A DNA stretch of 64,000 nucleotides, taken from sequence record NC_054908.1. One strand, given 5' to 3'. Numbering within the stretch: position 1 is the stretch's first letter; each line of letters begins with the position of its first letter. Positions 2,448 through 63,260 of this stretch are shown here, piece after piece. Under the pieces are notes generated by a model, which saw only the letters and a program-made list of their open reading frames with translations, made no database searches and was not told the DNA's origin. Source of the stretch: Escherichia phage vB_EcoM_DalCa. Position numbers and translations under genes: made by a program.

Positions 2448-4267
2448 TACTGGCTCATCCATTCTTTACGAAGGTCAGCATTATCTCCCATGAGCATTTC
2501 AAAAAGCTCTTTCCAGTTCTCAGGAAGTTTAACAACATCATATACTGGGTTTTGAATCATCTCACGATATTCAGATTTTTCCAAAGAGCCAAGTCCTTTA
2601 ATATAACGGATGCTATGTTTAGGTAGAGCATCTTTGGCACTCTCATATTCAGCGACTGTATAAAACCATTCTTGTTTTTTACCAATCTGAGCGATGATTA
2701 CAGGAGTTTTGACAAAACGAATTCGTCCTTGCTCAAACAATTCTGGCCAATTACTAAAAAATCCAAGCAGAGAAGGATAAATGCTTCCTAGGCCATCATG
2801 GTCAGCATCAGTCATAATAGCGATATTATGATAATTCAAGTTTTCAGCTTTTTCACCGAGAACTAATCCAGTGATTGCGCAAATATCAAATAGTTCTTTG
2901 TTTTTAAGCATATCTGCATAAGACATACCCCAACTGTTGAGAACTTTACCACGTAATGGATAACCACCGTGAAGTTCTTTATCACGAACATCAATAAGAT
3001 ATCCGATAGCCGAATCACCCTCAGTCAAGAAAAGAGTAGTATCAGCATCTTTACCACAAAGATTCGCTTTAATATGTTTATGAACCTTAGCTTTAGAAGC
3101 CTTTTTAGCTGCTTTAGTTTCTGCTGCTTTTTCTGCCGCCAATTTACGAGCCAAAGCAGCTTCAATAATTGGCATCAGAATTGCTTCATTATTCAAAATA
3201 GCACGTGAAATCTTTTTAGCGTCAAGTTGAATATGACTACGAATTTCGCCAAATGGAGAAGTCAAACGCTCTTTAGTTTGAGAATCAAATCGCATGTTTT
3301 TCATATCACGAACAAACATAACGATAGTCAAACATTCTTTGACACGCGCTTTAGTTACATCAATTTTGAACTTACGTTTGATTTGTGGAATAAGGTCTTC
3401 ACAAATATCATCCATAACACAGTCAATGTGATGGCCACCATTCTTAGTGTGAATGTTATTGACGTATGTTAATTGACGAAAACCATCCGGTGAACGACCA
3501 ACCGCAATAGAACAATTTTCTTGTTCTTGAACGATAGCATGCTCATCATATTGGCGTGCATATTTCTTAAAATTGCCCTGAACCTTTTTACCATTAAAGG
3601 TAAATTGAATATCAGGATAAACTACTGCAAGTGTCTGGAGACGGTCCAGTGTAATGTCAAGATAAACCTGAGACAGCTCATTAGTTTCAAATGACATAAA
3701 ATCAGGAATGAAAGTAACACGAGTTCCTTTCCATTTTCCAGGAATATCTTCCCATGATTTATTTTCCATGCCATTTGAACAACGAACTACAATATTATTT
3801 TGACCATCACCAGTTTCACCGACAAACATCACAGAAAAAATGTTTGTCAAACTAGAACCAACACCATTCATACCGCCAGTGACGCGTTCTTTATCATCAC
3901 CAAAGTTACCACCTGCTTTTGGAATAGTCCACGCAGCAACAGGACCAGGAATTTCTTCACCGGTAGGTGTTTTGACCATCGCTTGTGGAATACCACGACC
4001 GTTATCTTCAACTGTTACTTGATTGTTTTTAATAGTAACATTAATTTTATTTGCGAATTTAAACTTAGTACGAATACCTTCATCTACTGAGTTATCGATA
4101 ATTTCATCAATAAGCTTAACAAGACCAGGTACATACTGAACACTTTCCCATTTACCAAACAGAAAGCGCTCATGCATTTCATTAGCAGAAGAGCCAATAT
4201 ACATGCCACTACGCTTTTTGATATGCTCAATATCGCTCAGAATTTTAATTTCATTCTTAATCATCAC
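2447..4267 (-). CDS. 39: DNA topoisomerase II large subunit, unsplit gp39 (GyrB-like ATPase + Toprim)
   Basis: 606 aa; GHKL ATPase motif VEDNGRGIP, Toprim motifs EGDSA and IMTDADHDG in one continuous frame. Confidence 0.9.
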   Translation of the reverse strand: MMIKNEIKILSDIEHIKKRSGMYIGSSANEMHERFLFGKWESVQYVPGLVKLIDEIIDNSVDEGIRTKFKFANKINVTIKNNQVTVEDNGRGIPQAMVKTPTGEEIPGPVAAWTIPKAGGNFGDDKERVTGGMNGVGSSLTNIFSVMFVGETGDGQNNIVVRCSNGMENKSWEDIPGKWKGTRVTFIPDFMSFETNELSQVYLDITLDRLQTLAVVYPDIQFTFNGKKVQGNFKKYARQYDEHAIVQEQENCSIAVGRSPDGFRQLTYVNNIHTKNGGHHIDCVMDDICEDLIPQIKRKFKIDVTKARVKECLTIVMFVRDMKNMRFDSQTKERLTSPFGEIRSHIQLDAKKISRAILNNEAILMPIIEAALARKLAAEKAAETKAAKKASKAKVHKHIKANLCGKDADTTLFLTEGDSAIGYLIDVRDKELHGGYPLRGKVLNSWGMSYADMLKNKELFDICAITGLVLGEKAENLNYHNIAIMTDADHDGLGSIYPSLLGFFSNWPELFEQGRIRFVKTPVIIAQIGKKQEWFYTVAEYESAKDALPKHSIRYIKGLGSLEKSEYREMIQNPVYDVVKLPENWKELFEMLMGDNADLRKEWMSQ

Positions 4268-4606: not shown

Positions 4607-4976
4607 ATTTAATGGCTTGAAGGAGACTAATAATTCTCAAGCGACTTCTTTCATCTTTAACCGTAAATGAAAGAGGGTCACCAGATTTCATAGTGATAGT
4701 GCATTCAAAATCAAAATCTTCAGGAACTTCTTCGAAGAAGTCAAATTCTTCATCATAAATTAGAACATTACTCTGAAAACTGTGAAGAATTTTTCCATCA
4801 TTTCCAGATGCTGTACTAATCATTGTAACGTTATTACCTTTCATATCTTCAACGATAAATTCGCTTGTAGATATTACATTACTAATAGAACCATTCCTAT
4901 AAATAGCAGAAAATAGATATTTCTTTTCTTCACCTTCGCGAATGCGATATTTCTTACCGATTTTAAACATAATCAC
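4599..4976 (-). CDS. hypothetical protein
   Basis: 125 aa ORF, co-directional, 8 nt overlap with downstream gene. Confidence 0.5.
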   Translation of the reverse strand: MIMFKIGKKYRIREGEEKKYLFSAIYRNGSISNVISTSEFIVEDMKGNNVTMISTASGNDGKILHSFQSNVLIYDEEFDFFEEVPEDFDFECTITMKSGDPLSFTVKDERSRLRIISLLQAIKFE

Positions 4977-15253: not shown

Positions 15254-15427
15254 TCAATCTTCAATGAAAACTTGTGCCAGGAATTCATGCTCATCTTGAA
15301 TTTGTTTATATAAAGCCATTACAGCATTTATGTTAGAGCTATCTACTTTAAGTTGATAAGCATACCACTCATGTAAATTAATTAAAGCTTTTTGACGTCT
15401 AATAAATTCTTCTTTGGATATTTTCAT
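15254..15427 (-). CDS. small hypothetical protein
   Basis: 57 aa ORF read by hand (MKISKEEFIRRQ...); ATGA overlap with upstream stop. Confidence 0.35.
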   Translation of the reverse strand: MKISKEEFIRRQKALINLHEWYAYQLKVDSSNINAVMALYKQIQDEHEFLAQVFIED

Positions 15428-15624
15428 TTTGAATGCTCTATAATTAATTTTAAGGCTTCTTCACTGACAAAAATTTCGTCAGGACCTTTTTCTACAACCC
15501 AATCAACCATACGAAGCTGATTAGAAAAGAGCTCACATACGAGCTCCTTGTCATAATCTTTAAATAGCTGGTCAATACGCTTCTTGCGGGCTTTCTTGAG
15601 CTGGCGTTTAAATAAACGAGCCAT
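15424..15624 (-). CDS. hypothetical basic protein
   Basis: 66 aa ORF downstream of gene 56. Confidence 0.45.
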   Translation of the reverse strand: MARLFKRQLKKARKKRIDQLFKDYDKELVCELFSNQLRMVDWVVEKGPDEIFVSEEALKLIIEHSK

Positions 15625-16142
15625 TAATATCCTCTGTCTTGACGAGCGAAGTTTTCAGCATTTTTCAGATAATAAAGTTTAAAGATTTCCTCAGCTGACA
15701 TTCCAAGAGCAATGAATTTATTCATGAAAAAGTGAAATTGATCAATCAGTTCAAATTTAATTTCAAGCTGATCTTCGGGAGATAAATCTTGAATTTTCTT
15801 GGATTGCATTTCAGAATAACGTTTCTTCCAAGGTTTCCATACGGCAGAAGCTTCTTTTTCACCATTACTCATACCACCAAGAGAAGTATATAGCTCGCGA
15901 GTTTCATCTGCGATATAATCGTCTTGGTTTCGCAACCAAGCAAGAACTTCTCCTGCAGTTTCAAGTGAATCAGGATGACGATTTGTTTCTGGTTTATCAT
16001 TAGCCAAACGAATCTGTAAAGACCGCTGCATATCAAGCATAACCTGCAATGGGTCAATATTGTGCATAATATTCTCAGCATATGCACGAGTTGCTTTATC
16101 AACACCTTCGATCAAATGAGCACATTCATTAAAGTGAGCCAT
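15624..16142 (-). CDS. 56: dCTP pyrophosphatase gp56
   Basis: ORF-track ORF extends to 16235 but internal Met (MAHFNECAHLIEG) gives 171 aa, matching T4 gp56, with AGGA RBS upstream. Confidence 0.85.
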   Translation of the reverse strand: MAHFNECAHLIEGVDKATRAYAENIMHNIDPLQVMLDMQRSLQIRLANDKPETNRHPDSLETAGEVLAWLRNQDDYIADETRELYTSLGGMSNGEKEASAVWKPWKKRYSEMQSKKIQDLSPEDQLEIKFELIDQFHFFMNKFIALGMSAEEIFKLYYLKNAENFARQDRGY

Positions 16143-16213
16143 TATTTTTCCTTTCAATTCATGGATTAATAGATTAATTATACAATAAATATATAAAGCA
16201 ATAAGGAGGACAT

Positions 16214-16414
16214 ATGGTACAAAAATTAATGGCACTTGTTAATGCCATCAAAGGTAATAAGAAACGTATAGCTTTTACTATTTCTGCTATGGTAGGAATT
16301 TTACTCTGGAACTTTATTTTATCACCAATTGCAATTGCGCATGGTGTTAATATTCCAGTAGTTACTCTTGATACATTCGTAGATCTAGCATTTGCTTTAG
16401 TTGGGTTAATTTAA
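16214..16414 (+). CDS. small single-pass membrane protein (plus strand)
   Basis: 66 aa ORF with AAGGAGG 4 nt before ATG; hydrophobic core; only convincing plus-strand ORF in window, in the 56-61 intergenic gap. Confidence 0.45.
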   Translation: MVQKLMALVNAIKGNKKRIAFTISAMVGILLWNFILSPIAIAHGVNIPVVTLDTFVDLAFALVGLI

Positions 16415-17439
16415 ATCTTGGCATATTTAGATAACCGCATTTTAGCCATTAACCCCTGGGCAATATTATTTTTCATATATTCCATAATTTGTTCAGGGGT
16501 TGCACCTTCCTTTCTAATCATATCATTAACATCTTTTGATTTCCAGGGAGATTTATCCCAAAACATAACCCTTTCTCCTGCATCAACTAATTTAGTCATT
16601 CGCTTGATAGTGTCAGGGTGACGAGGTTCATTATCTAAAACCCACACTCGTCTATCTTTAAATGGAATAACTTCTAGGTCTAATTGACCACCCGTAATAG
16701 CTATACCATTTTCAATAAAAAGCGAATCTATAGGTCCTTCTAGAACATATACATCACCATCTTTGACTCGTTCGACTCCATAGATTTTTGTTGCCTCAGG
16801 ATAAGCTTTGATGGTGATATATTTTTGAGGAGCATCTTTCTTTAATGCACGTCCTTGAAAAGACTCAGCTTTTCCGTTAGCATTATAAATTGGAATAACA
16901 AGACGAGGCTCAGGTGTTTCCTTTTTATATGTTCCTGGAGCTATACTATTAACTAATTTAGGCCATTCAGTTGTAAACCAAAGATATTTCCATTTATCCT
17001 TTGGAATACAACGAGCTTTTACATATTTTATAATTGGATGGTCTTCCGCCAATTTATCTAATCTGATGCATGACGGAAGAGATTTAATTATTTTCTTCTC
17101 AGGTTGTTTAGGAAGTTCTTTAGGTTTTTCTACTGGACGACTTTTACCTTTTTCTTTTCTTATTTCAAAGATATACTCACGATATAAATCAGGTTCAAAC
17201 TCCTTTAAATATATTCCGATTGGTGCATGATAGTTACAGTTATAACAATGAATATTTCCTTCATTATTATCGCCATAATACCATCCACGGGCTTTATTTT
17301 GATCGGTTTTTGAATCTCCACAAACGGGACATCTAAACCGTAATTTAAAAGTTGAACTATTATTTACTTGTGCGAATTTAGGTAAATGAGCCAATGCACG
17401 GTATGCAAACTCATTATCAATCCAAGGTATTGATGACAT
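16411..17439 (-). CDS. 61: DNA primase gp61
   Basis: 342 aa as T4 gp61; N-terminal zinc ribbon CPVCGDSKTD...CYNC; Toprim-like core. Confidence 0.9.
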   Translation of the reverse strand: MSSIPWIDNEFAYRALAHLPKFAQVNNSSTFKLRFRCPVCGDSKTDQNKARGWYYGDNNEGNIHCYNCNYHAPIGIYLKEFEPDLYREYIFEIRKEKGKSRPVEKPKELPKQPEKKIIKSLPSCIRLDKLAEDHPIIKYVKARCIPKDKWKYLWFTTEWPKLVNSIAPGTYKKETPEPRLVIPIYNANGKAESFQGRALKKDAPQKYITIKAYPEATKIYGVERVKDGDVYVLEGPIDSLFIENGIAITGGQLDLEVIPFKDRRVWVLDNEPRHPDTIKRMTKLVDAGERVMFWDKSPWKSKDVNDMIRKEGATPEQIMEYMKNNIAQGLMAKMRLSKYAKI

Positions 17440-17441
17440 TT

Positions 17442-17606
17442 TTACTCTTCTTTTTCTTTAGATTCCTCTTTTTTCTTTTTAGGAATCTGTTCAGGACCTT
17501 TATTTACTACAGCACCTGACGTTGTTCCAGTGGAGATATTTTCAGGATTACCACCTGAATCTCCAGCTACCATATCTTCTTTAATAAATTCTTTATATGT
17601 TTTCAT
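17442..17606 (-). CDS. small Lys/Glu-rich protein
   Basis: 54 aa ORF read by hand (MKTYKEFIKEDMVAG...), GAGG RBS. Confidence 0.35.
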   Translation of the reverse strand: MKTYKEFIKEDMVAGDSGGNPENISTGTTSGAVVNKGPEQIPKKKKEESKEKEE

Positions 17607-17607
17607 A

Positions 17608-17964
17608 TTAACCTCTATTCATAAAAGCATTAAAAATTTGGTCATCAATAGATGGTGCAGTAATATTTTCTGCATCATTTAGCAAATCATTAATTTCATC
17701 AGATAGCATAACACATGTACCTTTATTTCCTGTAATTGTTACTGCGCAATTACGAACGTTTTCTTTATTAAATTTTAGGTTAATATTTTCGTAATGAAAA
17801 TCCTTTAATGCTGAATATATTTTTAAAATAAAATTGTCTTTTACTACAATAAACCCAACCTCACTATTAAAACGTGGTTCATGGAAACTGTAATAAACCT
17901 TTTCATCTATAAAATCGTATGAAATTTTTTCCATTTTTAAATATGAAAATTCAGAACTATACAT
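17608..17964 (-). CDS. hypothetical protein
   Basis: 118 aa ORF between primase and sp. Confidence 0.5.
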   Translation of the reverse strand: MYSSEFSYLKMEKISYDFIDEKVYYSFHEPRFNSEVGFIVVKDNFILKIYSALKDFHYENINLKFNKENVRNCAVTITGNKGTCVMLSDEINDLLNDAENITAPSIDDQIFNAFMNRG

Positions 17965-42779: not shown

Positions 42780-43249
42780 TTTAAACTCTTTCTAAGCTGC
42801 TTCTTGAATGAAGCTATTAATTGTGTTTTGGTGTCAGATTCATTATATTCAAATCCTCTTTGAAGCATCTCAGCCATCATTTCCTCTTTTCCTAAACGAG
42901 AAAATTCCTTTGATTTATCTCCAACGAAGTTAGGGTGAATATTATTTTGGGTGTAATCGGATTTTAAATAAGTAAGTAAATTTTCTAACCATTCAAGATA
43001 ATCAACCCCTTGTCCCTTTAAGCCAGAACGATTAAATTTATGCTTCATTTGACCTTCTGCGGCATTGCAGAGATTACAAAGCAATCCACGTACCTTTCCT
43101 GCTTTTGGTCCATTTAATTCATGGTCATGGTCGAGGTGATTAGCTTGAACGTCAGGATTTAGTTCTCGTTGGCAAATTAAGCATTTACCATTTTGTGCAT
43201 CATAAAATTTCTGTTTTTCTTCTTTATATAATTTGCCAGTCAATAACAT
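42776..43249 (-). CDS. 49: endonuclease VII gp49 (Holliday junction resolvase)
   Basis: 157 aa as T4 gp49; zinc/His-Me region HLDHDHELNG...CNLCN. Confidence 0.85.
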   Translation of the reverse strand: MLLTGKLYKEEKQKFYDAQNGKCLICQRELNPDVQANHLDHDHELNGPKAGKVRGLLCNLCNAAEGQMKHKFNRSGLKGQGVDYLEWLENLLTYLKSDYTQNNIHPNFVGDKSKEFSRLGKEEMMAEMLQRGFEYNESDTKTQLIASFKKQLRKSLK

Positions 43250-43291
43250 AATAAAACCCTTACCTTAAATAGATAAGGGTATTTATTATTT

Positions 43292-56681: not shown

Positions 56682-56846
56682 TCAAGGTATTTTTTCAAAA
56701 TTTCGCAATCTAGTATAGTCTGCCGGAGATTGGTTGAGTGATACTTCTCGACGCAAAGCTGAAATAACATTTCCAACTTCCCTACGAATTTCATCTAATT
56801 GAAGCACAGTAAGATTGCGAAGTTGCTTTTCAGTTAATTGTAGCAT
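56682..56846 (-). CDS. small hypothetical protein
   Basis: 54 aa ORF read by hand ([12 protein letters not shown]...), AAAGGGG RBS. Confidence 0.35.
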
Positions 56847-56888
56847 ATATACCCCTTTAGTTAGATAAACCTATTTATAACTTTTGCA

Positions 56889-62729: not shown

Positions 62730-63260
<531 letters not shown>

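Follow-up and report, generated by a model that had tools for sequence, protein, structure and literature searches.

Phages T4 and T2 carry dam, the gene of a GATC adenine methyltransferase, between genes 56 and 61 (16846-17625 in T4, and the same place in T2), as the sequence-only reading that preceded this work had stated. In the 64,000-nucleotide stretch of Escherichia phage vB_EcoM_DalCa analysed here, which we call the window, the two genes are close neighbours, and a 66-aa ORF lies between them on the opposite strand. This raises the question whether dam is absent, whether the small ORF takes its place, and what the small ORF encodes. We propose that the window belongs to a Tequatrovirus of the RB14/RB32 type with a simple 56-61 interval, that the 66-aa ORF is a conserved Tevenvirinae gene, most likely for a late inner-membrane protein, and that dam is an accessory cassette. 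The probability of this reading is, in our estimate, roughly 0.8.

The 56-61 interval and the absence of dam

Over 2.2 kb around the interval, the window is 96-97.6% identical to NBG2, VEc20, RB14 and many other Tequatrovirus genomes. RB14 is 96.5% identical in this region and has the same local arrangement. The first 25 kb of the window align end to end with Tequatrovirus genomes, beginning at rIIA. All sizeable ORFs around the interval are on the minus strand and match T4 genes: soc, 56 (dCTPase), 61 (primase), 61.1, a short 61.2/AdfA-like ORF, sp, 61.4, dmd and 41. From the start of gene 56 at 16142 to the end of gene 61 at 16411, the gap (16143..16410) is exactly the 268 bp that had been claimed. 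Among the plus-strand ATG-initiated ORFs of 50 aa or more, only one in the window both lies within a gap of the minus-strand genes and has a Shine-Dalgarno sequence, in agreement with the description of the 66-aa ORF as the sole convincing one on that strand. The Shine-Dalgarno sequence, AAGGAGG, is as strong as had been stated. At the other end of the ORF, its stop codon and that of gene 61, both TAA, are convergent and overlap by 4 nt. The features of the interval are collected in Table 1.

Table 1. Positions of the genes and signals in and around the 56-61 interval, in window coordinates.
Feature	Position	Strand	Basis
Gene 56 (dCTPase/dUTPase; Pfam dUTPase_2), left border	15624..16142	-	ORF list and family match
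MotA-type middle promoter for gene 56	16177..16201	-	Alignment with annotated T4 promoter; activity here inferred
MotA box TTGCTTTA	16201..16194	-
-10 element TATAAT, after an 11-nt spacer	16182..16177	-
T4 late-promoter-like box AATAAATA, A at -13 (consensus TATAAATA)	16184..16191	+	Sequence motif
Shine-Dalgarno AAGGAGG	16203..16209	+	4 nt before ATG, read from sequence
Small ORF, 66 aa, phrog_2024	16214..16414	+	ORF list and profile match
Intrinsic-terminator-like hairpin and U-run	16216..16251	-	Terminator scan: 11-pair stem, 4-nt loop, TTTTTG tail
Gene 61 (DNA primase), right border	16411..17439	-	ORF list and family match

Several details of the surroundings were recorded alongside. The soc-56 spacing (15254..15624, minus strand) lacks the homing endonuclease gene segF, unlike T4, and the position of segF is filled by two small ORFs of 57 and 66 aa (Soc.1 and Soc.2 in JK23; phrog_9053 and phrog_5782). 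The 61.2 homologue (17608..17964, minus strand) has only 118 aa, compared with 208 aa for T4 gp61.2. It corresponds to the short RB32ORF033c form (phrog_4122) and matches only the C-terminal half of AdfA, the anti-DarT factor A (PF23813 positions 113-211 of 211). Within the 3' end of gene 61, a long stable hairpin at about 16450..16502 (AACCCCUGGGCAA...UUGUUCAGGGGUU) could form on transcripts of both strands; the 166-nt segment that contains it folds at -38.1 kcal/mol, with z = -3.2 relative to shuffled sequences.

No Dam homologue was detected in the whole 64-kb window by tblastn with T4 and JK23 Dam (best E = 0.8), and the positive control of this search, run on T4, gave E = 5e-176. The earlier statement that no ORF in the window has a methyltransferase motif is likewise correct. 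The window lacks DPPY, and a six-frame scan for [DNS]PP[YFWH] returned three matches, none in an ORF of methyltransferase size: a 17-aa frame, the 61.4 homologue and a 103-aa member of phrog_2749, which are ORFs of at most 103 aa from unrelated families. A search of the whole genome for Dam had also been suggested. It was made directly in the window and by proxy only for the rest, where RB14 at 60-165 kb has no Dam homologue (best E 0.6) and no annotated methyltransferase; a dam gene elsewhere in this phage's genome, beyond the 64-kb window, would thus be excluded only by analogy with RB14.

The idea that the small ORF is present instead of dam holds for its first half, as dam is absent from the window, but not for its second. 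In T4, T2, JK23 and HY03 the small ORF is found between dam and 61, always abutting the 3' end of gene 61, and in JK23 and HY03 dam, a 186-aa ORF and the small ORF occur together. Because these four phages carry both, the small ORF is no stand-in for dam.

How unusual is a Tequatrovirus without dam? Phage records with T4-type Dam (at least 90% identity) number 182, and those with the Tequatrovirus form of the small ORF about 501, so roughly two thirds of sequenced Tequatroviruses lack dam. The dam-less order of 56, ORF and 61 is the commoner state in Tequatrovirus and is also seen in Mosigvirus, Gaprivervirus, Jiaodavirus, Dhakavirus and Gelderlandvirus. Thus, the absence of dam is unremarkable, and since the empty form is present in these five other genera, dam is best read as an accessory insertion. 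Distant Dam homologues of other T4-like phages are at other loci, for example adjoining the UV-repair N-glycosylase gene in Aeromonas phage Asfd_1. The dam-less state is common, and probably ancestral, with the direction of change read from the outgroup genera only. Both this state and the small ORF are already in databases and widespread there, and in this respect the finding is ordinary.

The content of the segment between gene 56 and the small ORF varies from phage to phage. It is empty in the window, RB14, EcNP1 and Pu-Krd-SF6; it contains dam and the remnant of a second ORF in T4, dam and an ORF of 181-186 aa in T2, JK23 and HY03, and an HNH/NUMOD3 homing endonuclease gene in fPS-2. In Yersinia phage P8, a homing endonuclease gene is inserted between the small ORF and 61 instead. 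Dam, alone or with a restriction-enzyme-like neighbour, would be an accessory cassette placed between the gene 56 promoter and the small gene in about one third of Tequatroviruses. The late-type box ahead of the small gene, described below, is positioned left of the MotA box in dam-less genomes and right of dam in dam-carrying ones. Loss of dam by one deletion between short direct repeats (ATTAATT...) was considered and rejected, as no single simple event accounts for the junctions.

Free-standing homing endonuclease genes are found at varied points around 56 and 61 (2780-3547 in Yersinia phage vB_YenM_P8, 1780-2430 in Yersinia phage fPS-2 and 3127-3759 in Salmonella phage STP4-a, numbered in the retrieved loci), and the region is a recurrent target of mobile elements. 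The 181-186-aa ORF directly upstream of dam (phrog_8706; in the retrieved loci, 3055-3615 on the minus strand in Shigella phage JK23, 1865-2410 in T2 and 1850-2410 in HY03) is absent from the window. Its resemblance to type II restriction enzymes is weak and below threshold (Pfam DpnII, E = 0.0045; PADLOC REase_II, E = 9e-5), and it has a D...EIK motif of the PD-(D/E)XK kind. The T4 remnant of this ORF is a 21-aa C-terminal piece with 95% identity (4649-4711 in the retrieved locus). A GATC restriction-modification-like cassette, decayed since then, may have brought dam in. Host defences that sense phage methyltransferases may also be influenced by whether a phage carries dam; one preprint mentions activation of the retron Ec86 by a methyltransferase that a phage encodes.

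The 66-aa ORF as a gene and the signals around it

The 66-aa ORF matches the phrog_2024 profile over its full length (E = 1.5e-31; residues 2-66 on profile positions 1-65 of 65). It also has the location typical of the phrog_2024/RB32ORF030w family, between 56 and 61, on the opposite strand and abutting the 3' end of 61. With RB32ORF030w of RB14, which is annotated as 'similar to RB69ORF029w', it shares 97% identity. The T4 copy (17738..17938, plus strand) is identical at 64 of 66 residues and is located in the 309-bp stretch between dam and 61. In the reference records of T4 (NC_000866.4) and T2 (LC348380) the ORF is present and unannotated, and a Pyrodigal-based T4 record from the 2020s lists it as hypothetical, phrog 2024.

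A tblastn search recovered the ORF from 691 phage records; identity was at least 90% in about 501 of them and under 60% in 190, and the primase gene was usually its neighbour. With a more sensitive query, further weak matches turned up among T4-like phages, those of Klebsiella and Salmonella included. The order 56 (minus), small ORF (plus), 61 (minus) is present in Mosigvirus ST0, Gaprivervirus TH40 and TH57, Jiaodavirus JY1, Dhakavirus QL01 and Gelderlandvirus STP4-a. No fewer than six Tevenvirinae genera therefore have the ORF in this interval, with products of 63-69 aa. Beyond this group, HMMER was run in full against 1.84 billion representative proteins for distant homologues and returned only small T-even-type proteins, after three long matches (1255-1822 aa, in 5-14 stretches) had been dropped as spurious because they are repetitive proteins. 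A word-indexed protein search returned only relatives of at least 91% identity.

The reading frame is intact in all 23 loci compared. Within genera, dN/dS is mostly 0.12-0.35, reaching 0.68 in Gaprivervirus; between genera it is 0.1-0.43, with synonymous sites near saturation. Variable columns number 45, 22 and 56 at the first, second and third codon positions, the 3 > 1 > 2 pattern. Residues invariant in an eight-sequence alignment include K4, L5, A11-I12-K13, W32-N33-F34, P38, H43-G44, P48 and D57. By these patterns of sequence change, the 66-aa ORF is a protein-coding gene under purifying selection and not a chance ORF in a regulatory spacer.

We considered whether the segment might instead be untranslated and conserved as the 3' untranslated region or terminator of gene 61, together with promoters for dam or 56. 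On the minus strand, the gene 61 stop codon is followed some 160 nt on by the terminator-like hairpin, which lies inside codons 5-13 of the plus-strand ORF, and the fPS-2 annotation marks a terminator at the equivalent place. The T4 record of Macdonald and Mosig marks only early and middle promoters here and no ORF, and the ORF's omission from the T4 and T2 reference annotations would agree with this. However, the hairpin is restricted to Tequatrovirus and is missing from Mosigvirus and Gaprivervirus, whereas the ORF, its length, its Shine-Dalgarno sequence and the late-type box are kept in six genera. The codon-position pattern and a dN/dS well below 1 also argue against an untranslated segment, and the invariant WNF, P38 and H43-G44 fall outside the hairpin. 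We regard this explanation as quite unlikely. A narrower version, in which the hairpin causes the conservation of the ORF's N-terminus, was rejected, as the same residues are still conserved in the two genera without the hairpin.

The small gene is preceded by signals that suggest when it would be expressed. In all 26 loci compared there is a Shine-Dalgarno sequence containing GGAG (AAGGAGG, AGGAGG or AAGGAG), and in every lineage sampled a late-type box is followed by it 10-20 nt on. Dam-less Tequatrovirus shares the box AATAAATA with Mosigvirus and Dhakavirus; dam-carrying Tequatrovirus has GATAAATA, Gaprivervirus and Jiaodavirus both have CATAAATA, and Gelderlandvirus has ATTAAATA. The ATAAATA core is shared by Tequatrovirus, Mosigvirus, Gaprivervirus, Jiaodavirus and Dhakavirus, in flanking sequence that is specific to each lineage. 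When five different arrangements with and without dam are aligned, homology restarts exactly at ATAAATAT. The spot between the gene 56 promoter and the small gene thus amounts to a natural experiment: the insertions differ and the late-type box before the small gene is always kept, which supports the function of the small gene.

The T4 late promoter is TATAAATA at -13 to -6, and A at -13 is its commonest deviation, occurring in 9 of 50 listed sites (PMC2988020); T(-13) is poorly conserved among T4 relatives (PMC2988020; PMC1524935). The small gene has a box of this type at about -13 to -6, with A, G or C at position -13 and never the canonical T in the lineages compared. Transcription from it would start near 16197. 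On both strands of the 64-kb window there are only eight [TA]ATAAATA boxes, six of which precede a Shine-Dalgarno sequence and an ORF; that of soc is among them, and record X01416 marks P(L) 15.32 as the late promoter of T4 soc. Because the late-type box is rare in the window, lies mostly ahead of ORFs and is kept in every lineage sampled, we read the small gene as probably expressed, and expressed late, on the strength of these motifs.

Further TATAAATA or AATAAATA boxes are located 30-40 nt ahead of minus-strand ORFs with Shine-Dalgarno sequences, at 63224..63258, 56846..56879 and 43249..43287, and are probably additional late promoters in the early region. Two tandem boxes precede the 164-aa ORF at about 63.2 kb.

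On the opposite strand, the gene 56 promoter aligns with the 56-dam junction of T4, T2 and JK23, where X01416 marks the mot-box and the -10 element of P(M) 16.53. It would be the equivalent of that promoter, which is upstream of gene 56/69 and linked to oriA; a MotA-dependent transcript is thought to prime oriA (PMC3016281). We suggest that the 71 bp between gene 56 and the small gene act as a divergent control region, in which the MotA-type middle promoter would direct transcription leftward into gene 56 and, on the other strand, a gp55-type late box and the strong Shine-Dalgarno sequence would serve rightward expression of the 66-aa gene. The late box lies wholly inside the 11-nt spacer of the MotA promoter, a very compact divergent pair that uses different sigma and activator systems. 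As a result, in dam-less phages part of the local conservation of the box could serve the middle promoter.

A late transcript running rightward could also matter as RNA. In this alternative, its main effect would be antisense to 61 and 41, helping to shut off early replication genes, and the peptide would be secondary. The ORF converges on and overlaps gene 61, we find no plus-strand intrinsic terminator between 15500 and 17600, and T4 is known to transcribe both DNA strands, at different times, at several sites (PMC2988020). In Jiaodavirus and Gaprivervirus, however, which have a spacer between the ORF and 61, a hairpin, as read from the sequence, directly follows the ORF stop and would limit read-through. 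Purifying selection acts on the amino-acid sequence, which also speaks against RNA as the main product. We consider this alternative highly improbable, although an antisense role could exist alongside a functional protein.

The predicted product and its role

The sequence-only reading had called the ORF a small membrane ORF. The gene is real, and its product is predicted, from composition and from a structural model, to be hydrophobic and of membrane type. The AlphaFold2 model (mean pLDDT 80) contains three helices: a basic amphipathic helix at residues 2-12, a long, potentially membrane-spanning helix at 16-42, and a short acidic helix at 52-62. Hydropathy peaks at residues 17-42, with a second peak near the C-terminus, which ends in ...DLAFALVGLI. 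Five K/R residues are found between positions 4 and 18, and beyond residue 18 the only charges are D53 and D57. By the positive-inside rule, a single-pass topology with the N-terminus inside is likely: the basic N-terminus would be cytoplasmic, one helix would cross the membrane, and the acidic tail of about 24 residues would be periplasmic. A single-pass inner-membrane protein is the best reading of the model; the hydrophobic C-terminal segment could alternatively form a second membrane helix, giving a hairpin.

Searches of Pfam, NCBIfam, PADLOC and PDB sequences with the 66-aa product gave no family match; the lone PDB match, NqrE (E = 2.2), was set aside as hydrophobic noise. A structure search of a viral library retrieved a close Tequatrovirus homologue (OE5505, labelled 'Holin') and two 63-aa proteins, one of them from Enterobacter phage CIP9, at E = 0.04-0.1. 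All other matches in that library had E > 1 and offered no functional lead. As Pfam, NCBIfam, PADLOC and the PDB gave no match for the family, any function assigned to it is a guess.

Is the product a holin or pinholin, a small membrane protein that makes the lethal lysis lesion? It is small and hydrophobic, its promoter motif suggests late timing, and the predicted helix supplies at least one membrane span, as a holin would need. The OE5505 relative is named 'Holin' in UniRef and BFVD, and the structure search showed weak similarity (E > 5) to other small membrane proteins of phages, of which a few carry the label holin. The OE5505 label, however, is automatic and unsupported. The product lacks the hydrophilic, highly charged C-terminal domain of holins, ending in ALVGLI, and only one clear membrane helix is predicted. 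Its gene is flanked by those for dCTPase and primase rather than endolysin or spanins, nor would it be the sole holin: T holin, RI, RIII and the spanins are encoded elsewhere (in RB14, t at 155.9 kb and pseT.2/pseT.3 at 133 kb). The Met1/Met6 pair, a possible sign of a dual start, is not conserved outside Tequatrovirus. Releasable signal-anchor domains are richer in Gly/Ala/Ser/Thr than the membrane helix of the 66-aa product, in which these residues make up about one third. Taken together, we consider a holin or pinholin quite unlikely and set this reading aside.

Returning to the single-pass inner-membrane protein, we would guess that it is no canonical holin but has an accessory function at the envelope late in infection, for example in the timing or inhibition of lysis or in protecting the infected cell. 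A more specific proposal, which we put forward tentatively and as less likely than not, is that the product is an unstudied late inner-membrane factor, shared by T4 and the other members of six or more Tevenvirinae genera that have the gene, and that it has a task of its own such as tuning the T holin/RI lysis clock or protecting the envelope. If so, the gene has been overlooked, since gene-by-gene screens of T4 built on the reference annotation would never target it. A useful point in any case is that the T4 and T2 reference annotations omit a conserved gene for a small predicted membrane protein with a late-promoter-like box. As the T4 reference annotation lacks it, studies based on that annotation will have missed the gene. 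Literature searches on the ORF names, on T4 ribosome profiling and unannotated genes, and on late antisense transcripts near gene 61 yielded nothing specific, and the small gene appears to be unstudied so far.

Comparison with known systems

The dam locus of T4 and T2 shares with the window the flanking genes and the gene 56 promoter region as far as the MotA box. It differs in that the window has neither dam (780 bp in T4) nor dam's own upstream region.

Small membrane proteins of lysis pathways, such as the phage 21 pinholin S21-68 and the T4 antiholin RI, resemble the 66-aa product in size, in having one or two hydrophobic segments and in probable late expression. In contrast to them, the 66-aa product has no charged C-terminal tail, is encoded outside the lysis cassette and shows no sequence match or significant structural match to these proteins.

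The arrangement of signals is that of soc and other T4 late genes in the early region, in which a TATAAATA-type box about 20-30 nt before the start codon is followed by a Shine-Dalgarno sequence, amid early and middle genes. Whereas soc has a perfect consensus box and a known structural role, the 66-aa gene has the A(-13) variant box and only a conjectured role.

The closest counterpart is RB32ORF030w/RB69ORF029w (phrog_2024), found in RB14, RB32, RB69 and hundreds of later T4-like genomes, whose members are recorded without a function. Nothing material sets the ORF in the window apart from it: gene, position, orientation and the 4-nt tail overlap with 61 are the same.
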